Of a stretch of DNA of 64,000 nucleotides, positions 1-3,000 are shown piece by piece. Within the stretch, counting starts at the first letter, position 1. Each line of letters starts with the position of its first letter. The DNA is taken from NCBI RefSeq assembly GCF_057098645.1, contig NZ_CM169472.1; one strand, written 5' to 3'. The position numbers are program-made.

Positions 1-3000
1 GGCGTTAAAAGAACCACCAGCCCGCCCAGGTAATCCAATCATCGAAGACAAAAAGCTGCCTGCACAGCAAAAAGCACGCGATGAATACTGGCGTACGCTG
101 TTACAAACGCTGATGGCATCGCAGCCACAACTGGCAGAAGAGGTGATGCAGTGGTTAAGTACTCAACCCCAGTCAGTGCTGAAGAGTTATTTATCGGCAC
201 CGCCCAAACCGGTTATTGATGGCACCGATAACAGCAATCTGCCAGAAATCCTCGTTTCACCACCGTGGCGTAGTAAGAAAAAAATGACAGCTCCACGTCT
301 TGATTTGGCACCGCTCGAATTAACTCCGCAAGTTTACTGGCAACCAGGCGAACAAGAGAGGCTTGCCGCCACTGAGCCTGCCCGTTATTTCAGCACGGAA
401 TCTCTTGCGCAACGCATGGAACAAAAAAGTGGACGAGTTGTATTACAGGAACTGGGTTTTGGGGATGATGTATGGCTGTTTCTGAATTATATACTCCCCG
501 GAAAACTGGATGCTGCACGCAATTCACTCATTGTTCAGTGGCATTACTACCAGGGGCGGGTTGAAGAGATCCTGAATGGCTGGAACTCCCCGGAAGCACA
601 ATTAGCAGAACAGGCGCTCCGCAGCGGTCACATAGAAGCGTTAATTAACATATGGGAAAATGACAACTACTCACGTTATCGTCCGGAAAAGAGTGTCTGG
701 AACCTGTATTTATTGGCACAGTTGCCGCGTGAGATGGCTTTGACCTTCTGGCTGCGTATCAATGAGAAAAAGCATCTGTTCGCGGGTGAGGACTATTTTC
801 TCAGTATCCTCGGATTGGATGCGCTACCAGGTCTGCTGTTGGCTTTTTCACATCGTCCAAAAGAAACATTTCCGTTAATTTTAAATTTCGGCGCAACAGA
901 ACTGGCCCTGCCCGTTGCCCGCGTCTGGCACCGTTTTGCGGGCCAGCGTAATCTGGCTCGCCAGTGGATTTTACAATGGCCGGAACATACGGCTACTGCA
1001 CTTATTCCACTCGTCTTTGTTAAACCCTGCGACAACAGCGAAGCGGCATTATTTGCCCTTCGTTTACTGTATGAACAAGGACATAGTGAATTACTGCAAA
1101 CGGTTGCAAACCGCTGGGATCGCGCTGATATGTGGCCAGCCCTGGAAAAAATACTTACCCAGAACCCGATGGAAATTTACCCGGCACGCATTCCAAAAGC
1201 CCCTGATTTCTGGCATCCGCAAATGTGGTCCAGGCCGCGCCTTATCACTAATAATCAAACTGTTACCAATGACGCTCTGGAAATTATCGGCGAAATGCTG
1301 CGCTTTACCCAGGGGGACGTTTTTATAGCGGGCTGGAACAACTGAAAACGTTCTGCCAGCCACAAACGCTGGCAGCTTTTGCTTGGCGTGGCAACAAGCT
1401 GGTGCCCCCGCAAAAGACAACTGGGCATTTCTGGCGTTAAGTCTCTTTGGTGACGAAAGCACGGCACGGGATCTGACGACACAGATCCTCGCCTGGCCAC
1501 AAGAAGGCAAATCTGCCCGTGCTGTCAGCGGCCTGAACATCCTTACCCTGATGAATAATGATATGGCGCTGATACAGCTGCATCATATATCGCAACGGGC
1601 TAAATCCCGCCCCTTACGTGATAACGCGGCGGAATTTCTTCAGGTGGTCGCAGAAAATCGCGGGCTAAGCCAGGAAGAGCTAGCGGACAGATTAGTCCCA
1701 ACCCTGGGCCTTGATGATCCGCAGGCGTTGAGTTTTGATTTTGGTCCCCGGCAGTTTACCGTTCGCTTCGATGAAAATCTCAACCCGGTTATCTTTGATC
1801 AGCAAAACGTTCGCCAGAAAAGCGTTCCCCGTTTGCGCGCCGATGACGATCAACTGAAAGCGCCCGAGGCACTGGCCCGACTAAAAGGGCTAAAAAAAGA
1901 TGCTACTCAGGTGAGCAAAAACCTGCTCCCGCGTCTTGAAACGGCCCTACGTACCACCCGACGCTGGTCGCTGGCAGATTTTCATTCTCTGTTTGTTAAT
2001 CATCCCTTTACCCGTCTGGTTACCCAGCGATTAATATGGGGGGTTTATCCGGCAAATGAACCGCGTTGTTTACTCAAAGCCTTTCGTGTGGCCGCAGAGG
2101 GGGAGTTCTGCAATGCGCAAGATGAGCCAATTGACCTGCCTGCGGACGCTCTGATTGGCATTGCCCACCCGTTAGAAATGACAGCAGAAATGCGCAGTGA
2201 ATTTGCACAGCTTTTTGCCGATTACGAAATTATGCCGCCTTTTCGCCAGTTGTCGCGCCGCACGGTGCTGCTCACACCTGACGAGTCAACCAGTAACAGC
2301 CTGACTCGCTGGGAAGGTAAATCCGCTACCGTTGGGCAACTTATGGGAATGCGATACAAAGGCTGGGAGTCAGGCTATGAGGACGCATTTGTCTATAACC
2401 TGGGTGAGTACCGGCTGGTCCTTAAGTTTTCACCCGGTTTTAACCACTACAATGTTGATAGCAAAGCGCTAATGAGCTTCCGTTCTCTTCGAGTGTACCG
2501 TGACAATAAATCCGTCACTTTTGCCGAACTTGATGTGTTTGATTTGAGTGAGGCGTTAAGCGCACCTGACGTCATTTTCCATTAAAACACAGCGGGCAGT
2601 GATGCAACTGCCCGTTATCAACACGACTTACCAGCGGGGAAAGCGATGATCGTGCAAAAAGAGCTGGTTGCTATTTACGATTATGAGGTCCCTGTACCTG
2701 AAGATCCGTTTTCCTTCAGACTTGAGATCCATAAATGCTCTGAATTATTTACAGGTTCCGTCTATCGACTGGAGCGATTCCGGCTACGTCCAACATTTCA
2801 TCAACGTGATCGAGAAGATGCTGACCCGCTAATAAATGATGCGTTGATTTATATAAGAGATGAGTGTATTGATGAGCGGAAATTACGAGGTGAATCACCT
2901 GAAACTGTAATAGCAATTTTTAATCGTGAACTACAGAATATATTCAACCAAGAAATAGAATAATATACTCTAAATAATTCAAATTGGTCCGATCCGGCGC

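Follow-up and report, generated by a model that had tools for sequence, protein, structure and literature searches.

The yehI gene of Escherichia coli K-12 MG1655 (b2118) is a single coding sequence of 3633 nt encoding a protein of 1210 aa, and its frame includes a run of six G residues (G6) and, further downstream, a stretch of 13 bases that are at issue here. About 99.7% of complete E. coli genomes carry both the G6 run and the 13 bases and so, like K-12, have the gene in a single open frame. Small-indel pseudogenes of this dispensable accessory gene are already known, and the first of the two lesions described below, a shortening of the tract to G5, is annotated in RefSeq genomes: yehI is marked ‘frameshifted’ in O145 RM8988-C1, CX04-CX21, 2013C-4974, OSUCMP42NDM, 23AR0885 and S6aCHROMc, all of which have the same G6 to G5 change as the sequence analysed here. 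A molR/yehH-like paralogue directly upstream of yehI (WGR and DUF4132 domains, 1264 aa when intact) is likewise commonly degraded; it is nevertheless a separate gene with lesions of its own. In the L1a sub-branch of E. coli ST131, the metG/DUF4132/yeh region is disrupted by TnMB1860, another inactivation in the same DUF4132 region that has become fixed in a lineage, which shows that successful clones can do without the region; in that case, however, the agent is a transposon carrying blaCTX-M-15 and the lineage is a different one (PMC9334617).

We analysed a stretch of 64,000 nucleotides (the window) from contig NZ_CM169472.1 of assembly GCF_057098645.1. Positions 1-13607 are colinear with strains 2452 and CX21 from yehI as far as the 5' end of mlrA, and the order downstream of yehI is that of K-12, with yehK, yehL, yehM, yehP, yehQ, yehR, yehS, btsR, btsS and mlrA following in turn. 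As judged by this colinearity, by the gene neighbourhood and by a match to PF13569, window 1-2585 is assigned to the 3' two-thirds of yehI, a gene for a 1210-aa DUF4132 protein whose first 345 codons lie upstream of the window together with the molR/yehH-like paralogue. In a megablast search, window 1-2700 mapped to yehI and yehK in 5,328 of 5,426 complete RefSeq E. coli genomes. The paralogue is an annotated pseudogene, with a frameshift and/or an internal stop, in K-12, strain 2452 and CX21 (L001, 1-1957; L003, 1-1605; L018, 9164-12957), and appears as a 952-aa ORF in contigs that carry the window's yehI allele.

Unlike the K-12 gene, yehI in the window has its frame broken twice. Aligned with the intact yehI of strain 2452, window 1-2585 (yehI nt 1035-3633) differs by the loss of one G and by the loss of 13 bp, and by no substitution; aligned with K-12 yehI, as the earlier note had proposed, it shows the same -1 and -13 deletions together with 61 SNPs. 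The best matches among the complete RefSeq genomes cover 2713-2714 nt for a query of 2700 nt, so that more than one base must be missing from the window. The features of the gene, all on the + strand, are as follows.

2..1315, +: yehI codons 346-783 in the native frame (window frame 2); window position 1 is nt 1035 of the 3633-nt gene
1312..1316, +: first lesion, a G5 tract that is G6 in intact yehI; one G lost (reference nt 2346, after codon 783), from alignment
1316..1345, +: nine aberrant codons read out of frame, DVFIAGWNN, then the premature TGA at 1343-1345, from frame reading
1318..1385, +: stretch between the lesions, native frame = frame 1 (R785 to W807), from frame reading and alignment
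1385..1386, +: second lesion, the junction of the 13-bp deletion of GGATCTCTTCACT (reference nt 2421-2433, codons 807-811), from alignment
1386..2585, +: yehI codons 812-1210 and stop in window frame 3, read as a 400-aa ORF from TTG 1383, from alignment
1812..2366, +: DUF4132 (PF13569; YehI residues 954-1138), Pfam E = 4.3e-48, residues 144-328 of the 400-aa ORF

Frame 2 enters the window already open and runs to FTQGDVFIAGWNN and the TGA. A TAG at 1326-1328 interrupts frame 3, which is open thereafter up to the TAA at 2583-2585, its first start codon being the TTG at 1383. The native frame of yehI follows frame 2 up to Gly783, passes to frame 1 for R785-W807 and continues in frame 3 from A812 (1386) to the stop. 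Between the lesions the native frame is thus neither of the two long open frames; read over 1318-1385, frame 1 gives RFYSGLEQLKTFCQPQTLAAFAW, the same as intact YehI. When the missing G and the 13 missing bases are put back, a single open yehI frame results. The claim of the earlier note that a yehI-like gene suffers a frame break, with TGA 1343-1345 ending one frame and another open from 1329, is borne out, as is its statement that K-12 has a single gene of ~1200 aa; the objection that a reference gene might itself consist of the same two ORFs does not apply, K-12 yehI being one ORF. Its placing of a single event at 1329-1345 does not hold, since the frame is broken by two deletions, at 1312-1316 and at 1385|1386. 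The 17 nt shared by open frames 2 and 3 at 1329-1345 are an incidental by-product, because neither deletion falls within them.

The junction of the second lesion can be placed equally well at 1386|1387 owing to a one-base G microhomology. This 1-nt microhomology is all that was found in a search for direct repeats flanking the 13 bp, and the DNA fold of the intact region gives z = -0.07; a hairpin- or repeat-mediated origin for the deletion was accordingly rejected. The net change is -14 nt, with no other, compensating indel in yehI, and therefore neither one slip nor one recoding event can bring the frame back. The window and strain 2452 are colinear over 13.6 kb, and elsewhere in this stretch there is no coding indel, the remaining indels being confined to the yehR-yehS spacer; an assembly full of homopolymer errors would look different. 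Compared with annotated intact genes, yehK, yehL, yehM, yehP, yehQ, yehR, yehS, btsR and btsS show substitutions only.

The longest product that could be translated from the broken gene is 792 aa, made up of 783 native and nine aberrant residues; it contains no recognisable domain, and the same 792-aa ORF is called on related contigs. DUF4132 is the single Pfam domain of YehI (164 bits against a cut-off of 27), and no Pfam domain was found in the N-terminal part of the protein. It lies wholly downstream of both lesions and is therefore missing from the 792-aa product; the domain is still encoded, out of frame with the N-terminal part. With its frame interrupted relative to intact orthologues and with no compensating indel, yehI in the window is classed as a frameshift pseudogene. 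We conclude that yehI has been inactivated by two small deletions fixed in a lineage, an ordinary and recent two-hit pseudogene, a reading to which we give a probability of about 0.93. The inactivation is taken to be recent because the allele has acquired no substitutions relative to its intact counterpart. The lack of further damage in the downstream ORF is what would be expected after a recent event, and is not in itself proof that function has been lost.

The alternative that survives best, and still has little chance of being right, is that the gene has been split into two working halves, an N-terminal protein of 792 aa and, from a start of its own, a C-terminal DUF4132 protein of 340-400 aa. 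In its favour, the two ORFs are long and show no other damage, gene callers annotate both, and the C-terminal one keeps a complete DUF4132. With zero substitutions, however, there has been no time for decay, and the intact appearance of the ORFs is uninformative. No Shine-Dalgarno-like motif is present in the 20 nt upstream of TTG 1383, ATG 1551 or ATG 1563. The TTG is an accident of the deletion junction, which created it, and the other candidate starts are internal ATGs. Moreover, the second deletion removes a stretch that could be spared only in a gene already dead, and in RefSeq the G5 allele counts as a pseudogene. We regard the C-terminal ORF of 400 aa as a leftover frame rather than a gene. 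Public gene calls now give a 792-aa product and a product of 400 or 344 aa; these should be annotated as one pseudogene, not as two hypothetical proteins.

The earlier note had allowed for either a frameshift pseudogene of this strain or a sequencing error, and the distribution of the lesions among public assemblies upholds the former and tells against the latter. The 400-aa ORF arises only with the 13-bp deletion, because the deletion places the TTG in frame immediately before GCG TGG. Its exact sequence was found in the public protein collection, where it is indexed in 38 blocks, and a 792-aa gene is followed by a 400-aa gene on all 24 of the contigs read. Both lesions are present in three Logan assemblies made from separate runs (SRR8751452, ERR8531222 and ERR769171) and in two NCBI assemblies (GCA_015676305.1 and GCA_032490095.1), and these five match the window at 99.96-100% over 3.8-5.6 kb. 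On this evidence it is highly improbable that a homopolymer miscall in the G tract and a local drop-out of 13 bases have given a false picture of a gene that is intact in the organism. It is true that the -1 lesion sits in a homopolymer, a classic site of long-read and 454 errors, and that G5 or G7 in lone complete genomes with G6 clonal relatives could be an error of this kind, as in O145 RM8988-C1 compared with other O145:H28 clonemates. A 13-bp loss, in contrast, is not a typical base-calling error, and the 13.6-kb core is free of other coding indels. Because identical lesions recur in independent assemblies from different runs and sources, sequencing error can be set aside for practical purposes, and both lesions are taken to be real and to lie in the DNA of the organism.

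Among complete genomes the two lesions differ in their occurrence. Not one of the 5,426 complete E. coli genomes in RefSeq contains the junction of the 13-bp deletion: a query of 44 nt across the junction had no match there, and in another search every best match came in two pieces spanning 83 nt. By comparison, G5 is present in 10 and G7 in 3 of ~5105 complete genomes, so that 13 (0.25%) are off G6. RefSeq marks yehI as ‘frameshifted’ in each of the six G5 genomes whose annotation was examined, of ten G5 genomes in all. G5 is found on the window's own allele, in O145 RM8988-C1 and the CX strains, and also on two alleles that lie ~90 SNPs from it. The presence of G5 on at least three allelic backgrounds and of G7 in 3 genomes marks the tract as a low-frequency hotspot for slippage. 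CX21 has the same yehI allele and G5 as the window, together with 58 SNPs downstream and no prophage in mlrA; despite the common allele and tract, it is no more than a candidate for the immediate sister lineage.

This variation of tract length in both directions and on several backgrounds is the one observation in favour of regulated expression, either by reversible G5/G6 phase variation or by programmed ribosomal frameshifting that restores full-length YehI, and we consider such regulation next to impossible: 0.25% of genomes off G6 is far below the level of a contingency locus, a 6-nt tract is short for such a locus and the added 13-bp deletion makes the allele irreversible, while for recoding the ribosome would have to make a -1 shift twice in 75 nt, frame 1 continued past the junction at 1385 stops after 17 codons, and direct reading reveals no X XXY YYZ heptamer at either site, neither ACC CAG GGG GAC nor TTG GCG TGG being slippery.

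We return to the two-hit pseudogene. The loss of one G from G6, seen directly in the alignment at 1312-1316, would have come about by replication slippage. With it the frame shifts past Gly783 and runs into the stop at 1343-1345, leaving a 792-aa product that lacks the C-terminal DUF4132. A sub-lineage of the G5 carriers would later have lost 13 bp at 1385|1386, as the nested distribution of the lesions suggests, and such a loss is the kind of secondary lesion that might be expected in a gene already dead. For the 792-aa fragment, the marker of G5, the index lists 308 blocks and 189 contigs; in one source it is entered under the name of a hypothetical protein of E. coli KTE234. By index abundance, the G5-only form is about eight times more widespread than the form with both lesions. 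G5 is present in all carriers of the 13-bp deletion that were examined, and four loci (L008, L010, L011 and L013) have G5 with the 13 bases kept and are otherwise near-identical to the window (0-1 substitutions). Because of this nesting and the eight-fold difference in abundance, G6 to G5 probably came first and the 13-bp deletion later in a sub-lineage, an order drawn from abundance and from nesting in few contigs rather than from a phylogeny. The RefSeq ‘frameshifted’ genomes all lack the 13-bp deletion, and in comparison with them the window would represent a rarer, derived allele of a sub-lineage.

New here are the double nature of the break, made by two nested deletions, and the distribution of the 13-bp allele, which no complete RefSeq genome has but a few dozen draft assemblies do. 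The finding carries little biological weight, as it concerns one poorly conserved accessory gene that is probably dead in one sub-lineage of E. coli. The nested pair of lesions, G5 and then the 13-bp deletion, does provide a clean lineage marker, and the case shows that an apparently single frame break can conceal two lesions and so rule out repair by one slip.

One of the G5-only loci, L010 (GCA_022715285.1), is damaged elsewhere in the cluster as well: at locus position 6755|6756 (corresponding to window 3209-3378) it has lost 170 bp, made up of yehK-yehL spacer and the beginning of yehL, and yehL is called there as 323 aa rather than 362 aa. Decay on the massive scale known from Shigella was considered as a context for the window and found no support: there are only one IS1 signal and one IS3-family signal, both inside the prophage described below, and the 13.6-kb core has no other coding indel.

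Intact yehI alleles have a dN/dS of ~0.27-0.32, that is, moderate constraint. A literature search found no functional study of YehI and its neighbours, a search of PDB sequences found no relative of YehI, and PADLOC gave no matches for YehI, K, L, M, P or Q. In NCBIfam, YehI matched no family, and the matches of YehL and YehP, to families of AAA and VWA type, were weak. The neighbouring genes fall into known families, with yehL encoding an AAA_5/MoxR-type ATPase, yehM a DUF5682 protein, yehP a VWA protein and yehQ a SWIM protein. If DUF4132 proteins work with the products of the adjacent yehLMPQ (MoxR-type ATPase, VWA and SWIM), then repeated loss might mean that a costly, conflict-type system is being shed. 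That the loss of yehI and its paralogue molR is selected for rather than neutral seems unlikely to us; the idea is suggested by recurrence, in that independent hits to the G6 tract are seen on three or more allelic backgrounds, the region is disrupted by a transposon in ST131, and the paralogue is dead in K-12, strain 2452 and CX21.

Within the same cluster, yehP (window 6641-7777) is named in the abstract, and mentioned 36 times, in a report on FSscan, which looks for hotspots of +1 ribosomal frameshifting in E. coli (PMC2790909). The yehK-yehL spacer contains an Rfam match to the OrzO-P antitoxin RNA of the zor-orz type I toxin-antitoxin system at 3083-3158 (+), with 99.9 bits against a gathering score of 60; no obvious ORF of at least 20 aa for a small hydrophobic toxin is present near this match.

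Downstream of btsS, mlrA (yehV) breaks off after its first 68 nt, where a lambdoid, Stx-phage-like prophage begins and runs to the window end (region 13540-64000, with the junction at 13607). Its features include the following.

17987-18490, -: IS1 transposase ORF inside the prophage
19428-20747, -: prophage gene for tail fibre
21473-24991, -: prophage gene J
29199-32441, -: prophage gene for tape measure
46176-48026, -: prophage gene for a nanS-p-like esterase
48167-48333, -: RNA of the STnc100 sRNA family (101 bits), between Q and esterase
49186-49261, -: tRNA with CAT anticodon, between Q and esterase
49575-50063, -: prophage gene for Q antiterminator
57722-58660, -: prophage gene for an O-like replication protein
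62626-62742, -: ALIL pseudoknot, the frameshift signal of IS3-family transposases, inside the prophage and adjoining ORF 61810-62697

The interval between Q and the esterase is where Stx phages carry tRNAs and stx. The prophage in the window appears to be stx-negative, because between the tRNA and the esterase there is neither an ORF for stxAB nor room for one. Beyond the IS1 ORF and the ALIL pseudoknot, no IS signals were found in the window. A phage ORF of 461 aa at 35421-36806 (-) matches the ‘portal protein’ families of PHROG, and related Stx phages have an annotated portal protein pseudogene somewhere within the matched 19-kb region. Within this ORF, at 35875-36660, a unit of 162 nt (54 aa) is repeated in tandem four to five times, the copies being 86-93% identical.
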